From a phage, in sequence record PQ478073.1: a stretch of 64,000 bases of DNA. The stretch is one strand, 5' to 3'. The translations under genes were made by a program, and so were the position numbers. The notes beneath the pieces were generated by a model. That model was not told where the DNA came from and ran no database searches. It saw nothing but the letters and a program-made list of their open reading frames with translations. This document shows positions 12,217 to 56,756 of the stretch, piece after piece. How positions within the stretch are numbered: the first letter of the stretch is position 1; the number at the start of each line of letters is the position of its first letter.

Positions 12217-12479
12217 ATTATAAAGATTTCCTACTAACATACAAGATTATTCGAGATTTAGCACACGACAATGATAGCCCTAGTCTAGAAGACACATGCA
12301 CTGAAATGATTCATACAATTCGTGGTAAGATTAAAAAAAAATTCAGTACTGTTATTATTGGTGATGACCATGCAGAATTTTCTGATATAATCATTAGACG
12401 TGATGGTAAAGTTGAGGTTCAGTACTACACTGATTTTGGATTTACCAGTATTCCGTTGGAGATATTCCCTTGGGATTAA
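12213..12479 (+). CDS. hypothetical small protein, array A (member 2)
   Basis: ORF track; MNYKDFLLTYKIIRDL; ATGA coupling. Confidence 0.6.
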   Translation: MNYKDFLLTYKIIRDLAHDNDSPSLEDTCTEMIHTIRGKIKKKFSTVIIGDDHAEFSDIIIRRDGKVEVQYYTDFGFTSIPLEIFPWD

Positions 12480-12781
12480 ATTTAAATGATATACAATTCA
12501 CTTATAAGATCCTATATGATTTGTATGATGTATACCTTGTTAGTAACAAAATAGGTTCACATAACCCATACAAAGAACAACCATTTATTGATTTATATAT
12601 TGAGTACTTAGATTCAGTAGGTGAATATATAAAAAAGAATTACAGTACTTTTATCGATGGAAATGATATATTCGAGTTCTCTGGAGTTAAATCATACAAT
12701 GGGATTATCCATGTTGAATTTCTTGAAATAACTGATAGGGGATTTATCGAGATTAAAGTTGTGAAGTTGGTGAATTTATAA
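12470..12781 (+). CDS. hypothetical small protein, array A (member 3), apparent TTG start
   Basis: ORF has no in-frame ATG; N-terminus LNDIQFTYKILYDLY parallels member 4. Confidence 0.5.
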   Translation: MGLNLNDIQFTYKILYDLYDVYLVSNKIGSHNPYKEQPFIDLYIEYLDSVGEYIKKNYSTFIDGNDIFEFSGVKSYNGIIHVEFLEITDRGFIEIKVVKLVNL

Positions 12782-12791
12782 GAGGTTACAT

Positions 12792-13103
12792 ATGTTATTA
12801 AATGATATACAATTCACATACAAATTTTTGTATATCCAATACGCTACGGTTGATGCTGGTGAATATCTCTACGATGAAATCTATCGTTCGCTATGGATAA
12901 AGTTTTTGGATGAATTACATGAATATTACCATGATTTGTGTATAGTTCGTGATAATAAAATATACAAATTCCGCGATATTGTTAGTCATAGCGGTAAGCT
13001 ACGATTGGAATTAAGTACTGATAGTGATGTTGATTGGATTGGTGTAAATTTACTGGAGTTGGAGAATGAAAAACAACTTAAAGGAAATACAAGTATTTTA
13101 TAA
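12792..13103 (+). CDS. hypothetical small protein, array A (member 4)
   Basis: ORF track; MLLNDIQFTYKFLYIQY. Confidence 0.6.
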   Translation: MLLNDIQFTYKFLYIQYATVDAGEYLYDEIYRSLWIKFLDELHEYYHDLCIVRDNKIYKFRDIVSHSGKLRLELSTDSDVDWIGVNLLELENEKQLKGNTSIL

Positions 13104-13350
13104 ATTCTTATACTTATCATATGTAAAAGATGAGTACTATGAAAGTGTGTATTATTTTTTATGGCAACATTACCGTACTATAGTAAGAGATTTATATATA
13201 GGAAAATCTATCATATCCAATGGTGAAAAATGTACCTGTACGGATGTAGTTAGTTTTAATGGTTCTTTAACACTGTGTTTCAGATGCGATAATAATAGTG
13301 GGTCATTTTCATTAAACGTATATCAGTTAGAAGGAATAAATTTTGAATAA
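13066..13350 (+). CDS. hypothetical small protein, array A (member 5)
   Basis: ORF track; GGAG RBS; MKNNLKEIQVFYKFLYLSY. Confidence 0.6.
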   Translation: MKNNLKEIQVFYKFLYLSYVKDEYYESVYYFLWQHYRTIVRDLYIGKSIISNGEKCTCTDVVSFNGSLTLCFRCDNNSGSFSLNVYQLEGINFE

Positions 13351-13543
13351 ATGTCCATATTGTAACAGTACTCAATTAGCTCGTTTCCGTTTAGATTCAG
13401 ACTGGGCGACTGGTGCTGGTGATTTCTTCCCTATTAATGATGATGCGGAATACACCGAAGAACAGCACAAAGATTTTGATAAATCATGGCGACCTGACAT
13501 TGAGTGCATTTATTGCCTTAATTGTGAGCGTGTTCATGACTAA
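13343..13543 (+). CDS. small zinc-ribbon protein (CPYC ... CLNC)
   Basis: ORF track; two Cys pairs. Confidence 0.55.
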   Translation: MNKCPYCNSTQLARFRLDSDWATGAGDFFPINDDAEYTEEQHKDFDKSWRPDIECIYCLNCERVHD

Positions 13544-13799
13544 AGCTGAACTAATAGTTCATACATATAAAATGATATCAAGTACTGAGTTATCATATAG
13601 TGCAGATAATCCAGTACTGGATTATTTTGTTGAATTATTGAAAGAGCATTATATTGGTAAATCACTGAATATTAATAATATTAATTTCACTATAACGGAT
13701 GTGGGACCAGGAAAAAACGTACTAATTGTATGTATTACTTCAACTGGTAACCCATTATACCCAATATCAGTAATTTTTGAGGTATTAGGTGATTTATGA
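13536..13799 (+). CDS. hypothetical protein (start moved from 13413 to internal ATG)
   Basis: track ORF overlaps upstream gene; ATG at 13536 overlaps upstream stop. Confidence 0.45.
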   Translation: MTKAELIVHTYKMISSTELSYSADNPVLDYFVELLKEHYIGKSLNINNINFTITDVGPGKNVLIVCITSTGNPLYPISVIFEVLGDL

Positions 13800-14086
13800 A
13801 TATCATATTAATACAAAAAACATATACTCTACTGATGAAAGAATATACTAATACTTATGATGAAAAGTGCAGTGCAAATCATAATATGTATGAATTCATT
13901 ACTCAAGAGTACAGGGATTATATATATGCTGTGTTAGTGGGTAGATATTTCAGTACTAGAAAATACACAAAACTTCAAATAGTTGATGTTTCTTTTTATT
14001 TCAATGGTCATATTACTATTCATAGTTTAGACCAAGATTCAACAACGTACTTAAACTTTTCATTTGATGAGGTAACATTTTTATGA
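13796..14086 (+). CDS. hypothetical small protein, array A-like
   Basis: ORF track; MNIILIQKTYTLLMKEY. Confidence 0.6.
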   Translation: MNIILIQKTYTLLMKEYTNTYDEKCSANHNMYEFITQEYRDYIYAVLVGRYFSTRKYTKLQIVDVSFYFNGHITIHSLDQDSTTYLNFSFDEVTFL

Positions 14087-47791: not shown

Positions 47792-48124
47792 ATGGATTTA
47801 AAGCCAATTGTGGTTAACAAATACAAAGAACCGTATGATGTGTATATTGGACGTGGGTCTAAATGGGGAAACCCATTTACCCATATTAAAGATAAACAAA
47901 CTAAAGCCGAATTCATTGTTAGTACAAGAGAAGAATCAATTGAAAAATTCAGAGAATACATTATTGAACGTATTTCTTGTGGAGAAGTTAAGATTGATGA
48001 ATTACTTGAACTCGCAGGGAAACGCCTTGGTTGTTTCTGTAAACCCAAATCATGTCACGGCGATGTTCTTGTCGAAATAGTGAGTGCAATATTAGATGAA
48101 TTACCAGACGATAATCAAGGATGA
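47792..48124 (+). CDS. conserved small Cys-containing protein (GNPF ... CFC ... CHG); family assignment uncertain
   Basis: ORF track; sits between nrdD and nrdG. Confidence 0.5.
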   Translation: MDLKPIVVNKYKEPYDVYIGRGSKWGNPFTHIKDKQTKAEFIVSTREESIEKFREYIIERISCGEVKIDELLELAGKRLGCFCKPKSCHGDVLVEIVSAILDELPDDNQG

Positions 48125-48566: not shown

Positions 48567-48570
48567 CATA

Positions 48571-48595
48571 AGCACCCGTTGGGTGCTTTTTTGTT
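48571..48595 (+). terminator. rho-independent terminator
   Basis: stem AGCACCC/GGGTGCT then T-run. Confidence 0.7.
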
Positions 48596-48642
48596 ATGTA
48601 TATAAATACATTAACTAATATCTAATTTATAAGGGATATATA

Positions 48643-51339
48643 ATGTCAAAGAAAATATATGGTGGCTTGGATGTCACACATAATGTGACAGTTAATGGTA
48701 AAAGAACAATACAAGGTATCAATGATCAAGTATTTGATGCTAATGGCAATATGGAGCTAGATACTTATTCAAGAGATGAAGTACTAGATATCGTCAGTAT
48801 GATGCCAATTTCCCATTATGGGTCACAAAACTATCTTCCTGCTGGTGTATCTGGTGATTTCAATGGTGCATCTGAAAACCAGTCCCAACGTAGAAATAAA
48901 ATTTTATTAGAAAACGATGGTACACTCGTATTATTACGTAGTGGTACAAACGGTAGTGTTGAGGGATTATATTATTCATATTTGGCTAACGCATTATCAG
49001 TTGATGACATGAGCCGTACAATTAACACCAGTCGTCAATACAAGCCTGGTTTTTTCGGTTCAAATCGCGTCGCAATTGGCTTATACAATACTGATCCAAA
49101 TATTTTACTCGGTAGATATGTAGACACTTCTAACAGTACTAATGGATTGTTTATTTCTATTACTAATGGTACATTAGATGATAAATTACATACTGGTTTT
49201 TTTGTAAATCAAGCAGATATTTGCCCTGAAGGGGGTATAGAATTTGCAATGATGGCTGAAGATGGTTCAATCTATGTCTTTAGTGTTCTTAATGAAAATA
49301 ACCAACTACAGTTAGTTGTTGTCCGAGTTGTATATAATATTAGCAATGGAACATATACGGCAACTCGTATTACAGGATGGACTACAAAAACATTCTATAA
49401 TACAACTTATTCTGCACAGAATAACATGGTTATTACTAATCAAGTAACTTCAACTAATATAGCAGATAAGCCTTATGTGTATGTACCACAAAACCTACGT
49501 GGTATTGGGATTTATATGACATCCATTGATTTGTATGTTGCACAGCAACCAGGAACACAGAACTTTCGTTTTAGAATGAATGGTGATGCATGGTTTACAA
49601 TGGCGACATATAATGTCCGACCACAACATAGCTACAGCTTTGCATTTAATATGAGTACTAAACAATGCACCCTAGACGCTGGGAATGACATAGGTTCATA
49701 TCAAGCACCATTGGTTATAACCAATACTGGCTCTGCATTAGTGCCTACAGGTAACGTTTTAAATAATGATCCATTATATAATCATGCTGGTGCAAGAAAC
49801 ATTTATAGTTCATATTTTTATTTGAATTCTGGTGAAGCTTTTTGTACTGCATGTCCAAACTTAGCAGAACCATTACTTATGCAAAAAGCTAAGTTTCCTA
49901 TTCAAATAGTTTATAGTATGCTGAATGTCCGTGCTGTACTTTCTACTGACTTCAAAGGTGGTATAGTTCGCCCGTCTTTTGGTTCAGCGGTTGGTTCATT
50001 TATTAATGGTGTAGAATTACTACCAGATAACAGTACTAAACAATATTCACGTGCATCAGGTAGTGGTGGATTTAGACCATCATATGCAGTTCATAAAAGT
50101 ACTCCTAATTTTACATTTAAATCATTATCTTTAGGAACAATACAAGGTTATGAACCTACAGTTGAACGTGCTAATGTTGATGATAATGCAAATAATAGAA
50201 TTTTTATTAGTAGTATTTCTGGGTCAACTGTCACAACCAATGGTGGTATTTTTATGGTTGGGCAACGTTATTCACAATCATTATCCTATGATAAAAACTT
50301 AAATGGCACAGGAATTATAAGCGTTACACAATCAGTACTGGACAATTTTAGAAATACTGAATATGCCAAAGTTCTAAGTGACTGGAATTTATCAGCACAA
50401 GCATACCGTGATATGACACTATTTGTTCCACAACAAACAGACATTCCAGCTTTTGTTATGTTGAGTACAATTACTAATGATTATAGAAACTATATTAGAA
50501 TTGCTGAAGTTAATGTCAATACTAGAGTTGGTAATATTACATCTATTACATTTAAGCGTTTAGTACTTGAGAATACGTATGGTGATAACTTTACACCAAC
50601 TGGGAATGGTTCGATTGCATCTTCTTCTGTTGGTTTGACCATATATGATGGTGGTTCATTCTACTTCATTGGTGGTTCTGACCCATTATCACATCCAACA
50701 ATAGGTAATACTGCAACTCATCAATTTAGAGCATATGTAACTAAATCAACTGCACAATTTACAAGTTTTATAATTACTGGTTCTCATGCCAGTTATGAAC
50801 AAGGAAGTCAACCAGCAGCGTTACCTGGTATTGGTTTTGGAATTTTTGAACCAATGGATTACTCAAATAAAATGACATTCAAAAAATATGGAACAACGAT
50901 TGCAGACTATAATAACTGGACTGCACAAGGTAGCCCAATTAACGTAGTATCCCAGGACGTTGCTCAAGGGTTTATTGTATATTTTACAGAGGAAACACCA
51001 GTTATTCTTTCAGGTAAGTCATTTTCACTACCAGTTTCAAATATTGATTTGAGAACTATTAAGTCTAATCCAGCAAATACAACATTTTATGTATATGTTA
51101 AATTGGAACAAGGATTGGCAAACTATTACATAACTACTGATGTTATTTCTGAAACAGGAACAACTGCATATAATATTTTTTGGATAGGTACAATTCAAAC
51201 TAACGCAATTCAAATCGAAACAATTAATATACAAAAACGTTCCCGTTTAGATATATTTGGTGCTTCACTTGAATCAGCAGGTTCATCGTTCCCAGTTAGC
51301 TACGGTCTACCATCACAAACAGGAACCATAAACTGGTAA
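48643..51339 (+). CDS. tail-fibre-like protein 1 (putative receptor-binding protein)
   Basis: 898 aa, Asn/Ser/Thr/Gly-rich; paralogous to 51955 gene; shared C-terminal module. Confidence 0.55.
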   Translation: MSKKIYGGLDVTHNVTVNGKRTIQGINDQVFDANGNMELDTYSRDEVLDIVSMMPISHYGSQNYLPAGVSGDFNGASENQSQRRNKILLENDGTLVLLRSGTNGSVEGLYYSYLANALSVDDMSRTINTSRQYKPGFFGSNRVAIGLYNTDPNILLGRYVDTSNSTNGLFISITNGTLDDKLHTGFFVNQADICPEGGIEFAMMAEDGSIYVFSVLNENNQLQLVVVRVVYNISNGTYTATRITGWTTKTFYNTTYSAQNNMVITNQVTSTNIADKPYVYVPQNLRGIGIYMTSIDLYVAQQPGTQNFRFRMNGDAWFTMATYNVRPQHSYSFAFNMSTKQCTLDAGNDIGSYQAPLVITNTGSALVPTGNVLNNDPLYNHAGARNIYSSYFYLNSGEAFCTACPNLAEPLLMQKAKFPIQIVYSMLNVRAVLSTDFKGGIVRPSFGSAVGSFINGVELLPDNSTKQYSRASGSGGFRPSYAVHKSTPNFTFKSLSLGTIQGYEPTVERANVDDNANNRIFISSISGSTVTTNGGIFMVGQRYSQSLSYDKNLNGTGIISVTQSVLDNFRNTEYAKVLSDWNLSAQAYRDMTLFVPQQTDIPAFVMLSTITNDYRNYIRIAEVNVNTRVGNITSITFKRLVLENTYGDNFTPTGNGSIASSSVGLTIYDGGSFYFIGGSDPLSHPTIGNTATHQFRAYVTKSTAQFTSFIITGSHASYEQGSQPAALPGIGFGIFEPMDYSNKMTFKKYGTTIADYNNWTAQGSPINVVSQDVAQGFIVYFTEETPVILSGKSFSLPVSNIDLRTIKSNPANTTFYVYVKLEQGLANYYITTDVISETGTTAYNIFWIGTIQTNAIQIETINIQKRSRLDIFGASLESAGSSFPVSYGLPSQTGTINW

Positions 51340-51350
51340 AGGATTACATA

Positions 51351-51938
51351 ATGGCATATAAAATAAGAGCAGACCTTAAGGCAATGCAACAAGTTACAGT
51401 ACAGGGTAAAAGTACTGGACTTGGTGTATTAGGTAATAATATGACTTATTACCCAACAAATTCAAATGGGGAATGTACATTCCCCTCTATTACCAAAGAT
51501 GAAGTTAACTTTATTGTCAATGGATTACCACTTACACAATACGGAGAATTGTATGATGACGCTAGTCTAAATATTACTTCATCAGGCTATAGTCTTACAT
51601 TTAATAGACAGATACCATCATTTATTGGTGGTTATCTTTATAAATTTCCAGCAGTTTCTATTTTTGCTTCAACTGTTTCATCTGGAACACAAACACAATA
51701 TGTATATGCAACGTTAGTTCTCGGTGAACCAATTTATAAAATATCACCAACACAAATACAAGAATCTGAAATTATAATGTTTATTGGTACTCTTACTGTA
51801 GGTACAAGTGGTATTACAAATATAAACATTAATAAAGTATCCAGATTTAGTACATATAGACCTAGTGTTACACAAAAAGGTTCTTCATTCCCAGTCAGTA
51901 CTGGAAAACCATCAGAAACTGGTACAATTGGTTGGTAA
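51351..51938 (+). CDS. short tail-fibre-like protein carrying the shared C-terminal module
   Basis: C-terminus GSSFPVSTGKPSETGTIGW matches neighbours. Confidence 0.55.
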   Translation: MAYKIRADLKAMQQVTVQGKSTGLGVLGNNMTYYPTNSNGECTFPSITKDEVNFIVNGLPLTQYGELYDDASLNITSSGYSLTFNRQIPSFIGGYLYKFPAVSIFASTVSSGTQTQYVYATLVLGEPIYKISPTQIQESEIIMFIGTLTVGTSGITNININKVSRFSTYRPSVTQKGSSFPVSTGKPSETGTIGW

Positions 51939-51954
51939 ATTAAGGAAAAGAAAG

Positions 51955-54684
51955 ATGTCATCAAAACGAATTATAGGAAGTGCCGAGATCCTTGGGAACT
52001 TGGCAATTGGACAAAGGTACGCTATGCGTACTTTTAATGGAACCTCACCGAATGCCAATACTGGAATTGTTCAATATCCAATATATAAGCGTTCAGAAGT
52101 TCAAAGTATTTTAGATATGTTGCCTATATCACGTGTAGGAGAAATGGATTACTTACCATTAAACGTAAGTGGGTCGTATGAAGGTGCTACACCTATGTCA
52201 AGTGACCAAGTAGTTCAGCCAACAATTATTGAAGATGATGGAACCGCCGTTGTTCTGCGTAGCGGAACCAATGGTAGTACTAAAGGTTTTTATTATTCAT
52301 TTATACGAGAACTCCGAAATATAACTATGATTTCACAAGAAAGTGTTATTTCAACCAATTCAATGTATAAACCTTCAATTATGAGTAGTACTGAAAATAT
52401 TAAGTATTTTATTGGCTCTAATGGTTATGAGATGCTTGGATGTTTAAGTACTGAAGATAATTATATTTTTACTATAACCAATGGCACATTTAACGAAATA
52501 TCACATATTCATGCTAAAGTGCCAAGTACTTCTTTTGGTAATGATATGCCAATATATACACATATTGTTGGGACAAAGGTTTATATTTGGTGTAAAGATA
52601 AAAGTGTTTCTAATTTAGGATTAGCACTTTCAATTTATACAGTAGAGCTAAGTGATGTGAAAGCAAGCTCAATGGCATCATTAACAAAAGTTACTGGGTT
52701 ATCAGGTCAAACTGTTCGAAACACAAGTTATTCTGCATCTAATAACATAAGAGTGTTCGATAAATTATATAGTGTTGGTACTAGCTCGGATTCATTATTC
52801 GAAGTTACATCACCAGTATCACGTGTAGAATTTTCAGACTATACAGACTTTAACATTCAAGCCAACGTTAGTCCTGATTTATCAAAAATACGTGTAACTT
52901 TATATCCAACACATCGAATGGTTACACCTTTGTATATTTCAACAGTTTATGGTACTGGAATAAGTTTTGTTTATAATATAAACTCAAAATCTATGTCACT
53001 AGATGGTAGTGCTCGTGCACCTGCAACTGTTTCATATAATAATGGATTTCAAGTTTCTAACCCATTTGAAATTAATATGGTCAACTTCACAGGGACAACT
53101 GCTGCTGGTGTATTAGGAAACGCAGGTGGTTTATGTCAAACTAAAGATGGTTTGGTATTTGCATCTAAATTTAGATGGAGTTCAACTGAATTTTATGGTC
53201 TACAACGATATAAGGTTAGTGGTACACCGTTTGATTCATGGGTTGCCAGTACTAGAACCGCAAGTAACGTTATAAATGCAAACGTTTTACCAGTTTTTGG
53301 TAGTGCTGTTGGTGCAAACCTTTTAGGTGTACGTTTCATCGATAATAGAAAAATATTATTAGCATGTTCTGGTACGTATGATGATGTAACATATAATTAT
53401 AATAATACTGTTTTTTCTGAAATAGGTTCACAACCAACATATCAATATAACTCAGTTCAAAATAATACTACATTAAATGGTTTTGCACCACAATCTAATC
53501 GTAAACAAATAGGCGATGATTTTACATACACTGCTATGATTTCTCTTGTTGATACCGATGGTAGTGTTAGATGCTATGGAACATCATTCATTGAAGGTGT
53601 ATATAAAACAAGTGGTGGATTATTAAATCCAGATACTTTAGAATTTGATGAAACATATACAATAGAACCAACGGTATTAGAATCATTAAAACAAGATATT
53701 TTTGCTAATATAGGAAACTCTGGCATTGTTGGTACACTATCTGGACAAATTGTATTATATTATGTACCTGATAATACTTTTTCTAAATCCATCGCAGTAG
53801 TTTCAGCATATAATCTTAACAATAACCAAGGTTATGCAATCTATGCCGAAGTTGATGTTGTATTATCTGGAACTAACATAACTTCAGCTACATTGGTGAG
53901 TACTAGATATGAGACACTTAGTTCTGTTACAGGAATTATTACTGAAGCATATATGAAACGTTGTACTGGTCTAACAGTTGCAAAATATTCAGGATTTGGT
54001 TACATTGGTGTTGATGCTGTTCATCAATTTTCACAACCAGGTAATGCACAATTTAAGATGATGATAGCTAAAACAGTAGATGGTGTCATAACATCAAATC
54101 GTTTTTTATCATCTAGTTACATCCAACTTGGTGCAGCATATCAACATGGTGTTATTCCTGGTGTTGGTTTTGGATATTACAATTTTCAAGATTCTGACTA
54201 TCAAACCAAATCTGTATTCAGCGTTTTTGGTACAACATCTGCTGAAATGGATGGTTTAATTAGCGGAAATGGTAGCGTTAAAGAAAAGATTGTGGTAGTA
54301 TCACAAGACGTTGCACAAGGATTCTCAGTGTACTTTACACGTGAAGTTCCGGTGTTTTTAGGTGGAATTTTCGACAGACTACCTATACAAAGTGTTGATT
54401 TAAGTACTGTAAAAAGTAACCCAGCTAATACTACGTTCTATTTGTATATACAAATGAACAGGAATACTAAGAAAGCGTCATATGTTATTAGTACTGAAAC
54501 AATTGATGAATCTTTAACTAGCACTTACATTGGTAAGATAGTTACTGGAACTTCAGGAATAACTTCAATTGATACAGAAAAAGTAACTCGTTTTTTGACA
54601 TATCGTCCAAGTACAACGAAACGTGGTTCAGCGATACCTGCCAGTACTGGTGTACCATCAGGTCCAGGTACACGTTGGAAATAA
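51955..54684 (+). CDS. tail-fibre-like protein 2 (paralog of 48643 gene)
   Basis: shared segments VVLRSGTNGS and VVSQDVAQGF..YFT...SNPANTTFY; AAGGA RBS before ATG at 51955. Confidence 0.55.
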   Translation: MSSKRIIGSAEILGNLAIGQRYAMRTFNGTSPNANTGIVQYPIYKRSEVQSILDMLPISRVGEMDYLPLNVSGSYEGATPMSSDQVVQPTIIEDDGTAVVLRSGTNGSTKGFYYSFIRELRNITMISQESVISTNSMYKPSIMSSTENIKYFIGSNGYEMLGCLSTEDNYIFTITNGTFNEISHIHAKVPSTSFGNDMPIYTHIVGTKVYIWCKDKSVSNLGLALSIYTVELSDVKASSMASLTKVTGLSGQTVRNTSYSASNNIRVFDKLYSVGTSSDSLFEVTSPVSRVEFSDYTDFNIQANVSPDLSKIRVTLYPTHRMVTPLYISTVYGTGISFVYNINSKSMSLDGSARAPATVSYNNGFQVSNPFEINMVNFTGTTAAGVLGNAGGLCQTKDGLVFASKFRWSSTEFYGLQRYKVSGTPFDSWVASTRTASNVINANVLPVFGSAVGANLLGVRFIDNRKILLACSGTYDDVTYNYNNTVFSEIGSQPTYQYNSVQNNTTLNGFAPQSNRKQIGDDFTYTAMISLVDTDGSVRCYGTSFIEGVYKTSGGLLNPDTLEFDETYTIEPTVLESLKQDIFANIGNSGIVGTLSGQIVLYYVPDNTFSKSIAVVSAYNLNNNQGYAIYAEVDVVLSGTNITSATLVSTRYETLSSVTGIITEAYMKRCTGLTVAKYSGFGYIGVDAVHQFSQPGNAQFKMMIAKTVDGVITSNRFLSSSYIQLGAAYQHGVIPGVGFGYYNFQDSDYQTKSVFSVFGTTSAEMDGLISGNGSVKEKIVVVSQDVAQGFSVYFTREVPVFLGGIFDRLPIQSVDLSTVKSNPANTTFYLYIQMNRNTKKASYVISTETIDESLTSTYIGKIVTGTSGITSIDTEKVTRFLTYRPSTTKRGSAIPASTGVPSGPGTRWK

Positions 54685-54690
54685 ATTTAA

Positions 54691-54719
54691 AGCTCGTCTA
54701 TTGACGGGCTTTTCTTTTA
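54691..54719 (+). terminator. rho-independent terminator overlapping the next promoter
   Basis: stem AGCTCGTC/GACGGGCT then T-run. Confidence 0.6.
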
Positions 54720-54729
54720 TGTGTATAAT
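54701..54729 (+). promoter_or_regulatory. sigma70 consensus-like promoter TTGACG-17-TATAAT
   Basis: near-consensus hexamers about 25 nt upstream of RBS. Confidence 0.6.
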
Positions 54730-54751: not shown

Positions 54752-55318
54752 ATGGTCAAAACTTTATTACCACCACCAAAACGTCACAAAATCAAAGAAA
54801 TGAAAGAACAACGTACATTAAAGATGTACAACAATTTAGTTAAGTTACTGTGTAAAAGTCCATCGCTCAAAGCAGAGTTTAAAACTGATGATGACCGTAA
54901 AGCACTAATTGAGATGAAATATATGCTCAGTAAAATGTCCTTTTACAAATTTGTAAAAGAATACGCATCTGACCCATTTAGTCCTCGTTGGAGAGCCAAA
55001 CCAAGAGAGTATTTTTACGGTGGTTCATATACAGATCGCATTCAAGACACAGTGATGGGAGTTGAATTTGAAATCGATTATGAGCCGAATGGTGAGGAAA
55101 TCTTGCAGATTGAGAAACGTTTACCAAGTGAAGAAGAAATTTATGTTTATGCAAGAAAACTTTCAACTTACAGTTCAAGAATTACTCTAGGCAATTTAGA
55201 TTCATTAATTATTTTCTATACACGTGTTGGTGTAGATAAGATGGTAACTAAACTCAATGAACTTTCATTACAACAAAAACAGATTAATGCATACAAAGAC
55301 ATTACTGATTTATACTAA
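54752..55318 (+). CDS. hypothetical protein, tandem triplet family C (member 1)
   Basis: ORF track; AGGAGG RBS; motif KSPSLKAEFKTDDDRKALIEMKYMLSK. Confidence 0.6.
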   Translation: MVKTLLPPPKRHKIKEMKEQRTLKMYNNLVKLLCKSPSLKAEFKTDDDRKALIEMKYMLSKMSFYKFVKEYASDPFSPRWRAKPREYFYGGSYTDRIQDTVMGVEFEIDYEPNGEEILQIEKRLPSEEEIYVYARKLSTYSSRITLGNLDSLIIFYTRVGVDKMVTKLNELSLQQKQINAYKDITDLY

Positions 55319-55324
55319 TGAGGA

Positions 55325-55846
55325 ATGGATATGTTTTTTGGATCAGTTGGAAAACAAAACAGTACTTTAATTTGGCATGAAATTATCTTTAAAATTATAT
55401 CTAAAAGCTACTCACTAAAGGATATTATCACCACAGATAATGATAGACGTATCCTGTTAGATGCAAAATATAAATTGAGCAAACACCCTTTACTTTCTTT
55501 AATCATTGATTACGTTAATGATTATGAATCTAGTCGTTGGAAGTGGGAAGACGGCGGTTTATTTCGTGGAAAAACATTCTACGGTGCGGAACGATATGTT
55601 TTCAGTGATGCATCAAATGGCGTTAAGTTTGTTATTAGAAACTTTAACTCCAAAGAAAATGATTATCTTGAAAGTGGAGTGAAAGTATATATCGATAATA
55701 ATAGCAATGTCCTAACATATGACGAATCACTAATTATGTTACAAATAATGCGTGGTGTTGAAGGTGTAAGAAACAACCTTACTAAATTGAAAATCCAGCA
55801 AAATGATATACATAATAGACAGAAAATTAAGGGTTTATATAAATGA
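55325..55846 (+). CDS. hypothetical protein, family C (member 2)
   Basis: motif KSYSLKDIITTDNDRRILLDAKYKLSK. Confidence 0.6.
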   Translation: MDMFFGSVGKQNSTLIWHEIIFKIISKSYSLKDIITTDNDRRILLDAKYKLSKHPLLSLIIDYVNDYESSRWKWEDGGLFRGKTFYGAERYVFSDASNGVKFVIRNFNSKENDYLESGVKVYIDNNSNVLTYDESLIMLQIMRGVEGVRNNLTKLKIQQNDIHNRQKIKGLYK

Positions 55847-56352
55847 TTTCATTTTTCAAAAAGAAACAAAAAGTTGATGAAACAGGATTAGAATCGTTTC
55901 TATGGACTCTTATCATCAAAAAAAGTCCATTGATAAAAGAATATGCTATCAATGATGCTAATAGAAAAACTATCATTGAATACAAATACGAATTATCAAA
56001 ATGTGATCCAATCGTTTATCACTTTGCGAAGTACTGTTCAAAAAATTTATCGGATATCACAATAGACCATGAGTCAGTTCCAATGAGCTTTCCTTATGGT
56101 GATTGGGTAGATACTTTTGATATTTTTGATGGGTCCAATGGATTCAGTTTCTTTTACTCGTCAAATAAAGCAAATGTTCGTATTAAAACAGAGATAGGTT
56201 GGGCACAGCATAGCTCAAATAAAGAAGATTATAATTTACTAGCTGACGTATACCGAAGTGTGAAGAATTCAAAGGATATTGATGAAAGAATTAAAAAGCA
56301 AAATCGTATTTCTTTATCACTTGAAACATACAAGTCAAAGTATGGTGGTTAA
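55843..56352 (+). CDS. hypothetical protein, family C (member 3)
   Basis: motif KSPLIKEYAINDANRKTIIEYKYELSK; ATGA coupling. Confidence 0.6.
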   Translation: MISFFKKKQKVDETGLESFLWTLIIKKSPLIKEYAINDANRKTIIEYKYELSKCDPIVYHFAKYCSKNLSDITIDHESVPMSFPYGDWVDTFDIFDGSNGFSFFYSSNKANVRIKTEIGWAQHSSNKEDYNLLADVYRSVKNSKDIDERIKKQNRISLSLETYKSKYGG

Positions 56353-56354
56353 CG

Positions 56355-56756
56355 ATGACTACAGTTGATGATATCTACAGCACTATACGCAATATGAGTA
56401 CAGATAGAAAAGTATTTGGTGATAAAGAAAAATCTAAGTGTTATGGTATTGATTCTTTTGATATAATTTCTTATGAGTACAACACGAGTGGAAATAGTTC
56501 ACTGAATATCGTCTGCCCTCGTGACCCAGAAAATAATTTTATGTATGTTGAAATTAATAATGATGGAATATTTTTTACAAAAGTTTTTAAAGGTGGAATT
56601 AATTACGAACCAATTGAATGTATGAATGAAGAAACTTTCTTTCAAGAAGATACAATTATCAATTTAGGTTTTAGTTTTGATGATTATAAAACATTAGAAC
56701 ATGACTTTAATCGTTATTATAACGGTTTCTTAAAGGAGTTAACAATTTATCTATGA
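56355..56756 (+). CDS. hypothetical protein
   Basis: ORF track. Confidence 0.55.
   Translation: MTTVDDIYSTIRNMSTDRKVFGDKEKSKCYGIDSFDIISYEYNTSGNSSLNIVCPRDPENNFMYVEINNDGIFFTKVFKGGINYEPIECMNEETFFQEDTIINLGFSFDDYKTLEHDFNRYYNGFLKELTIYL

Follow-up and report, generated by a model that had tools for sequence, protein, structure and literature searches.

Why should two proteins of about 900 amino acids (aa) and one of 195 aa, encoded side by side in a jumbo coliphage, carry the same C-terminus, and what could such proteins be doing? The question is raised by positions 48643-54684 of a 64,000-nucleotide stretch of phage DNA (record PQ478073.1, hereafter the window), which belongs to an Asteriusvirus jumbo coliphage of the 121Q/PBECO4/phAPEC6 group. 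The DNA of this region is 96.5-97.6% identical to 22 Asteriusvirus records, including 121Q, PBECO4, phAPEC6, UB and JP4, where all three products are labelled "hypothetical protein". The three genes, their parts and the elements that frame them are on the + strand. Gene A (48643..51339, 898 aa) is a full-length paralog of type 1, gene B (51351..51938, 195 aa) is a paralog of type 2 that consists of an N-terminal and a C-terminal module alone and is here called headless, and gene C (51955..54684, 909 aa from its ATG) is a full-length paralog of type 3, the types being defined below. We are inclined to regard A, B and C as virion proteins of the host-recognition type on the baseplate periphery, anchored from both of their ends, with propeller heads in A and C and with B lacking a head.

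Shared ends of the three proteins

The initial annotation had noticed the common C-terminus of the two large proteins and the small one, and this is borne out by BLASTP, where B matches A with an E-value of 9e-17 and C with an E-value of 7e-24, far above chance. The module is considerably longer than the approx. 45 aa then assigned to it; in fact it spans about 120-130 aa and is composed of a beta-sandwich of approx. 95 aa and a tail of approx. 30 aa. The C-terminal motif quoted at that time fits B and C, but A has a diverged version of it, KRSRLDIFGASLESAGSSFPVSYGLPSQTGTINW. The internal blocks reported for the two large proteins likewise reflect a real similarity, but one that is not confined to blocks, as A and C align end to end (27-29% identity, BLASTP E about 1e-62). 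Nor is the C-terminus the only conserved end, as had been assumed: the N-terminal approx. 65 aa are common to all three proteins, B 1-85 matching A 1-74 (E 5e-7), and a hidden Markov model (HMM) of this N module matches all three genes with E-values from 1e-18 to 1e-29. Since both end modules are common to A, B and C, B reads as the two ends of a large paralog put together, with approx. 65 aa from the N-terminus and approx. 120 aa from the C-terminus. Within the 64-kb window, both modules are confined to these three genes.

In A, the N module (aa 1-65, 48643..48837; HMM E 2e-29) contains a short helix at aa 44-51 and ends in an LPISHYG motif, and it is followed by an all-beta, propeller-like body (aa 66-765, 48838..50937), probably made of two halves that split near aa 435. 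The shoulder-like C-terminal beta-sandwich of A (aa 766-868, 50938..51246) aligns to B 77-165, its fold being taken from the model of B, and the tail (aa 869-898, 51247..51336) is rich in Gly, Ser and Pro, ends in a final Trp and has a type-specific sequence. In B, the N module (aa 1-65, 51351..51545), with a helix at 49-58, is assigned by the HMM and by the structural model, and is followed by the shoulder-like beta-sandwich (aa 72-165, 51564..51845) and a tail of type-2 flavour (aa 166-195, 51846..51935). The order in C is the same as in A: an N module (aa 1-67, 51955..52155; HMM E 2e-18), a propeller-like body assigned by the full-length alignment with A (aa 68-778, 52156..54288), a shoulder-like beta-sandwich that is 43% identical to B 77-192 (aa 779-879, 54289..54591) and a tail of type-3 flavour, EKVTRFLTYRPSTTKRGSAIPASTGVPSGPGTRWK (aa 880-909, 54592..54681).

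A mechanical open reading frame (ORF) call puts the start of C at a GTG (51865) and lets it overlap the end of B by 74 nt. This start is probably wrong and the true one is most likely the ATG at 51955, since the latter has its own AAGGA Shine-Dalgarno sequence and every ortholog begins at the matching M[SA]S[KR]R[IV]IG. In the 7t3 record, the ortholog of C is likewise annotated with an upstream extension (950 aa).

Three orthology types and repeated loss of the body

In phages GAP32 and CBB, three full-length paralogs (902-916 aa) occupy the slot directly after nrdD-nrdG. Both ends of the proteins define three types: type 1 comprises A, GAP32_143 and CBB_147, type 2 comprises B, GAP32_144 and CBB_148, and type 3 comprises C, GAP32_145 and CBB_149. 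A is 44% identical to GAP32_143, and C is 38% identical to GAP32_145 and 35% to CBB_149. As the best match of B is GAP32_144 at the N-end (E 8e-12) as well as at the C-end (E 9e-28), B is the middle paralog minus about 715 aa, which were lost in frame and correspond to the entire body. The layout of a large, a 195-aa and a large protein is conserved in Ecwhy_1, 7t3 and ph0011, and orthologs of B keep a length of 195-202 aa throughout 12 clusters (46-99% identity).

When the C module by itself was used as the query, a second class of mini paralogs came to light, of 186-216 aa and with type-1 ends. In two metagenomic jumbo-phage contigs, L012 and L013, such a type-1 mini sits first in the same slot, where the protein lengths are 193, 918 and 568 aa (L012) and 190, 912 and 915 aa (L013). 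The 568-aa protein of L012, which is of type 3 (12358-14064 of the JGI contig Ga0456365_0000060), equals GAP32_145 1-437 joined to 786-916; it is without residues approx. 438-785, i.e., the second half of the propeller body alone has been lost. This protein can serve as a natural marker of the domain boundary. Each of the three paralog types has thus undergone an in-frame deletion independently of the others, and all of these deletions end at predicted domain borders; the N module is kept in all mini paralogs. As every genome examined has retained a single N+C module per type in spite of such deletions, the ends are indispensable and the heads individually dispensable.

All three genes, B included, are under purifying selection, with ratios of nonsynonymous to synonymous substitution rates (dN/dS, Nei-Gojobori) of 0.08-0.35 for A, 0.19-0.36 for B and 0.12-0.41 for C, values that are rough since dS is saturated (above 1) in most comparisons. 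When orthologs of A or of C are compared, the segment conserved best is in most cases the 30-aa tail. For A this holds in two of the three comparisons (97% and 87% identity vs. 85% and 60% overall), while the tail of C is 90-93% identical in Ecwhy_1 and 7t3 and 80% in ph0011, vs. 47-74% for the whole protein; relative to 7t3, the tail of C is 93% identical and its body about 40%. In the more distant comparisons, variation is greatest in the bodies and above all in the first half of the C body, which is also the most variable part of that body among close orthologs (63% vs. 88% for the N module). Mean tail identity within types 1, 2 and 3 is 0.74, 0.68 and 0.87, respectively, and 0.22 between types. 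Such type-specific tails suggest that each has its own conserved partner or site.

Predicted structures

The AlphaFold2 model of B has a predicted local distance difference test score (pLDDT) of about 90 for aa 70-165, where it forms a nine-stranded sandwich, with the helix 49-58 coming from the N module. The best fold matches of this model are the receptor-binding protein (RBP) of lactococcal phage p2 (score 9.0), the tail fibre of cyanophage A-1(L) (8.5), the RBP of phage 1358 (7.8), SPP1 gp22 (7.2) and the HFTV1 tail fibre (7.1), followed by three entries of TssK (6.1-4.9), a phi812 baseplate protein (6.0) and Mtd (4.7), while ordinary immunoglobulin and fibronectin type III domains remain below 3. 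The p2 RBP, the 1358 RBP, gp22 and TssK share a "shoulder" domain of two four-stranded sheets and a helix, which trimerises and receives a loop of the baseplate, namely the Dit "hand" or TssG (PMC7291167). It is by this domain that lactococcal phage RBPs and TssK are anchored to their baseplates. The fold predicted for B agrees with this layout of two four-stranded antiparallel beta-sheets and a helix, and because of the matches to these four proteins the C-terminal module is best read as a shoulder-type anchor. The helix of the N module would probably complete the shoulder-like sandwich. Among the options offered in the initial annotation, the predicted fold favours that of an attachment element.

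The model of A (pLDDT 85, predicted template modelling score 0.79) is all-beta, with residues 1-60 and 870-898 disordered in the monomer. In Foldseek, the body of A gave generic propeller matches (tandem WD40 proteins, DPP4, GH43, sialidase), all with TM scores of 0.2 or below, and the top ones were WD40-type assembly proteins. As a class, the predicted body resembles the propeller fold, with five or six blades, of glycosidases, sialidases and fucose lectins. The crystal structure of phiKZ gp131 is not among the fold matches listed for this propeller-like body.

Presence in virions and wider family

A and C are virion proteins. The phAPEC6 ortholog of A, gp323c (98.6 kDa), is represented by 4 peptides in the proteome of the virion (PMC7247149). 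In JP4 virions, liquid chromatography-tandem mass spectrometry gave 2 peptides each for the 898-aa ortholog of A, JP4_233, and the 909-aa ortholog of C, JP4_235, at similar and low abundances of 1.8e6 and 2.3e6, respectively (PMC12648861, supplement 2). In the GenBank record of phAPEC6 (MK817115, 14697-18042, corresponding to window 51339-54684), the orthologs of B and C are unannotated, and a 114-nt ORF (gp322c) is the sole call inside C. Because of these missing annotations, the published phAPEC6 proteome was probably unable to score B and C. CBB_147-149 are not listed in the CBB proteome table (main text), so their label "structural protein" is not direct mass-spectrometric evidence.

At the level of families, A and C match phrog_3573 (E 9e-276 and 8e-267) and B matches phrog_26864 (E 4e-115), and all PHROG families matched by the three proteins are listed as "unknown function". 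Searches of Pfam, NCBIfam and PDB sequences with A, B and C, as single sequences and as profiles, returned nothing. A profile of the large proteins collected 564 cluster representatives at 50% identity, most of 870-1000 aa and matching through the last profile position, and some body residues are invariant across all types of the family. With tblastn, 171 phage records were found, apparently all of jumbo phages, many of which match the C module only. Among the records listed (184-386 kb) are Rak2-like phages (GAP32, BF, SNUABM phages, fHe-Yen9-04) as well as phiKZ-like ones (EL, SPN3US, Goslar, RAY, PCH45 and Aeromonas phages). In hhalign, alignment A2 pairs A 57-885 with SPN3US gp168 545-1411 (probability 98.6%, E 7e-16), and the C module including its tail is paired with the C-terminus of EL ORF115 (probability 99.4%); the same C-terminal sandwich module is borne by EL ORF114, EL ORF115 and SPN3US gp168. 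Conservation of the set thus covers the jumbo phages of Asteriusvirus and Mimasvirus, and its more remote relatives are found in phiKZ-like phages.

SPN3US gp168 has been described as a tail protein from mutant proteomes, where it falls into the tail fraction, is annotated as "baseplate/fiber", and has been grouped with phiKZ gp131 and ORF145, being 16% identical to the latter (PMC5105663). A direct homology of A and C to phiKZ gp131, gp145 and gp146 was considered and rejected, as hhalign of A2 gave a probability of 1% or less for each. The tie of the family to phiKZ gp131/ORF145 in the literature runs through gp168 alone. The initial annotation, which took the genes for tail-fibre or receptor-binding proteins, agrees with the orthologs of A and C found in virions and with the homolog gp168 being described as a tail/baseplate-fibre protein. 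It had also named absence from virion proteomes and homology to non-structural proteins as grounds for rejecting it, and both points have come out in favour of a structural role.

Proposed arrangement and alternative explanations

To hypothesize, the N module (approx. 65 aa, with its helix), the C-terminal sandwich and the tail would together make an anchoring and oligomerising unit at the baseplate periphery, and the beta-propeller body of approx. 700 aa, probably in two halves, would be inserted between these ends as a variable distal head that binds or cleaves a cell-surface glycan, in the manner of a lectin or a glycosidase. Anchoring ends and a propeller head would explain the pattern of conserved ends and a variable middle. 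B would be the middle paralog whose whole body was lost in frame and whose anchor was retained, and we propose that it persists because the assembly would be incomplete without its anchor, either by taking one seat in a hetero-oligomer with A and C or by plugging a docking site of its own. We infer that the N and C modules form one domain, that the proteins sit at the baseplate, that they are trimeric or heteromeric and that they bind a receptor.

Several points weigh against this proposal. The mass-spectrometric support for A and C is thin (2-4 peptides), and B (JP4_234) is not among the 49 proteins detected in JP4 virions, where about 0.3 peptides would be expected from it. Phmmer and profile searches of all PDB sequences gave no sequence-detectable solved homolog, and the body, which has no Pfam or NCBIfam profile match, showed neither a catalytic nor a sugar-binding motif that is conserved. 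No folded domain follows the sandwich (A 766-868, C 779-879), whereas in classical RBPs the shoulder is N-terminal and is followed by the neck and the head; in A and C, the head lies between the N module and the C-terminal sandwich. The N module is poorly modelled (pLDDT below 65), so that its packing on the sandwich is tentative. Finally, the three genes lie amid genes of nucleotide metabolism, outside the main structural cluster.

A more specific idea is that A, B and C assemble 1:1:1 into one heterotrimeric receptor-binding complex, instead of three separate homo-oligomers, on three type-specific split "shoulder" domains, each of which would consist of the N helix, the C-terminal sandwich and the tail. 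We put this forward tentatively and would not expect it to hold as stated, and yet a heteromer is compatible with the similar abundance of A and C in the JP4 data, with the rule of one protein of each type and with the type-specific tails. There is also a precedent in phiKZ, where the base of a fibre is a hetero-hexamer built from the paralogs gp131, gp133, gp134 and gp135 (PMC13250141). If true, heads could be removed one by one, giving three-, two- and one-and-a-half-headed complexes with the anchor undisturbed, and the complex would be a naturally modular, multi-specific RBP on a jumbo myovirus with an anchor of the TssK/siphophage type in a permuted topology.

It seems unlikely that A and C are purely architectural, i.e., a scaffold or brace whose propellers serve as platforms for protein-protein contacts and which neither binds a receptor nor acts as an enzyme. 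Such a role would suit beta-propellers, which are common scaffolds, and it draws on the WD40-type assembly proteins among the top Foldseek matches, the invariant body residues across all types, the lack of a recognised catalytic motif and the many large structural proteins that phiKZ baseplates hold. About as improbable, in our estimate, is that B and the other minis stay outside the virion and serve its assembly, or regulate it competitively, with the shared ends as the means by which they chaperone or cap A and C at that stage. In this case, the absence of B from the proteins detected in JP4 virions, its position between its putative clients A and C, and the case of SPP1 gp22, a shoulder protein that stands alone and has no established place in the virion (PMC7291167), would find an explanation. 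The first of these points is uninformative, however, because B offers only 5 tryptic peptides of usable size, and A and C yielded 2 peptides each from 29 and 36. Moreover, B is orthologous to a full-length paralog of the structural type, and in L012 and L013 it is another paralog that is mini, which fits a "seat" that must be filled better than a dedicated chaperone.

The initial annotation left room for a chaperone-like element or a recombination cassette, and neither fares well. An intramolecular chaperone or trimerisation tag, similar to Peptidase_S74 or to the fibritin foldon, which folds the upstream body and may be cleaved off, would account for the module standing at the C-terminal end of most fibre-like members of the family and for a last 30 aa that are disordered in the monomer model yet highly conserved, and a shoulder fold is compatible with a role in oligomerisation. 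Nevertheless, we consider it very unlikely, since B and the other minis, which have no body to fold, keep the module under purifying selection, the predicted fold matches anchoring shoulders and not helical chaperone domains, no Pfam or NCBIfam entry (S74 included) is matched, and in SPN3US gp168 the module is internal. As for the shared ends being recombination cassettes by which middles are swapped between paralogs or co-infecting phages for host-range switching, conserved flanks around variable middles could in principle allow homologous exchange, and in the more distant comparisons bodies do diverge faster than ends. DNA repeats able to act in this way were sought among the paralogs and were not found: the flanks are too dissimilar for homologous exchange, as shared stretches reach at most 70 nt (70% identity) and do not occur in the C modules. 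The ends are also type-specific at the protein level and so have not been homogenised, and their conservation is explained by purifying selection on the protein, which makes such cassettes highly improbable.

That A and C might make up the hair-like whiskers seen on phAPEC6 and CBB was considered and set aside, since the proteins are predicted to be globular propellers and GAP32, where whiskers are undescribed, has members of the family too.

Comparison with known systems

Paralogous fibre proteins or RBPs with a common anchor and variable heads are already known, and the distant homolog gp168 has been placed in the tail. In the literature searched, we found no description of what appears to be a permuted shared module of the shoulder type, of an nrdG-adjacent set of three types, or of recurrent headless forms.

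The module described here has no sequence similarity to the shoulders of p2 ORF18, the 1358 RBPs, SPP1 gp22 or the N-domain of TssK, and it differs from the classical shoulder in belonging to a jumbo myovirus and in its extra conserved tail of 30 aa. True sequence homology exists to SPN3US gp168 and to EL ORF114 and ORF115 (PHROG 3573, 7449 and 26864; "virion structural protein"). These proteins are larger (1200-1700 aa), with extra N- and C-terminal regions, the module being internal in gp168, and no triple set with type-specific ends and no minis are described for them. With phiKZ gp131-gp135, the likeness is one of design only: adjacent paralogs have an anchor region in common, build the base of a fibre as a (hetero-)oligomer and bear a beta-propeller distally, and that family includes a very small member, gp132. 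Unlike in A, B and C, the phiKZ anchor is N-terminal only and is a helical bundle.

The RaK2/K64-1 tailspike cluster (ORF525-534) likewise comprises several receptor-binding proteins, and in RaK2, a related jumbo phage, it takes up the same slot directly after nrdD-nrdG. In RaK2 (NC_019526, 322764-345682) this tailspike/tail-fibre cluster lies mostly on the opposite strand. Its genes are annotated for tail, tail-fibre and tailspike proteins similar to podovirus tailspikes and to a K5 lyase, which are not propellers and are unrelated to A, B and C; neither the N module nor the C module is present in these tailspikes (ORF525-534). Because of this cluster, the slot after nrdG appears to be a replaceable RBP locus in Rak2-like phages.

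In practical terms, A, B and C are "hypothetical" in nearly all Asteriusvirus and Mimasvirus records retrieved, which include phages proposed against E. coli O157, avian pathogenic E. coli and Salmonella. An assignment to host recognition would give concrete candidates for determinants of host range, and the natural borders of head loss could be a ready guide for head swapping. The result would also extend the shoulder-type anchor, present in siphophage RBPs and in the type VI secretion protein TssK, to jumbo myoviruses in a new topology.

Genomic context

The three genes are framed by two strong terminator-like hairpins, each with a T-run. The upstream one follows nrdG (48570..48588, an 8-bp stem with 5 GC pairs), and this hairpin, AAGCACCC...GGGTGCTTTTTT, is kept upstream of the first paralog in phAPEC6, Ecwhy_1, 7t3, ph0011, GAP32, CBB, L012 and L013. 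The downstream one stands directly after C (54689..54712, a 10-bp stem with 5 GC pairs). Between the first hairpin and gene A, about 35 nt upstream of the start codon, lies TATAAATA (48601..48608), a box resembling late promoters of the T4 type, whose consensus it represents. It is the single + strand copy in the 64 kb, where 2 copies in total were found vs. 12.6 +/- 3.4 expected, and the core [TCA]ATAAATAC is found behind the terminator, at the same place before the first paralog, in eight related loci. Since the box is depleted and its only + copy stands before gene A behind a conserved terminator, its distribution suggests that it could act as a T4-like late promoter and that stray copies are selected against. 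A, B and C each have a Shine-Dalgarno sequence, and with terminators as their borders and the promoter-like box in front they would form one unit, presumably transcribed late.

At 54701-54729, overlapping the terminator of gene C, there is a sigma-70-like promoter close to the consensus (TTGACG-17-TATAAT). Directly downstream, at 54752-56352, there are three small tandem ORFs (188, 173 and 169 aa) which are mutual paralogs (E 2e-14 and 4e-4) without a match in Pfam. A gene for a DUF4326 protein (47792-48124) is situated between nrdD and nrdG, and one for an RlaP-type nucleotidyltransferase (56753-57985) lies downstream of the set. In GAP32, CBB, L012 and L013 the DUF4326 gene is downstream of the paralogs, which means that the neighbourhood has been rearranged between genera.

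Two further proteins were compared with the set. The 2129-aa tail fibre of JP4 has an N-terminus that superficially resembles the start of B, yet it gives no match to the N module. A 929-aa virion protein encoded nearby (58692-61481) was considered as a fourth paralog and rejected, as it is unrelated to A and C. This ORF is the ortholog of phAPEC6 gp314c ("tail fiber protein", detected by mass spectrometry), has no Pfam match, and represents a second virion gene lying amid non-structural genes.

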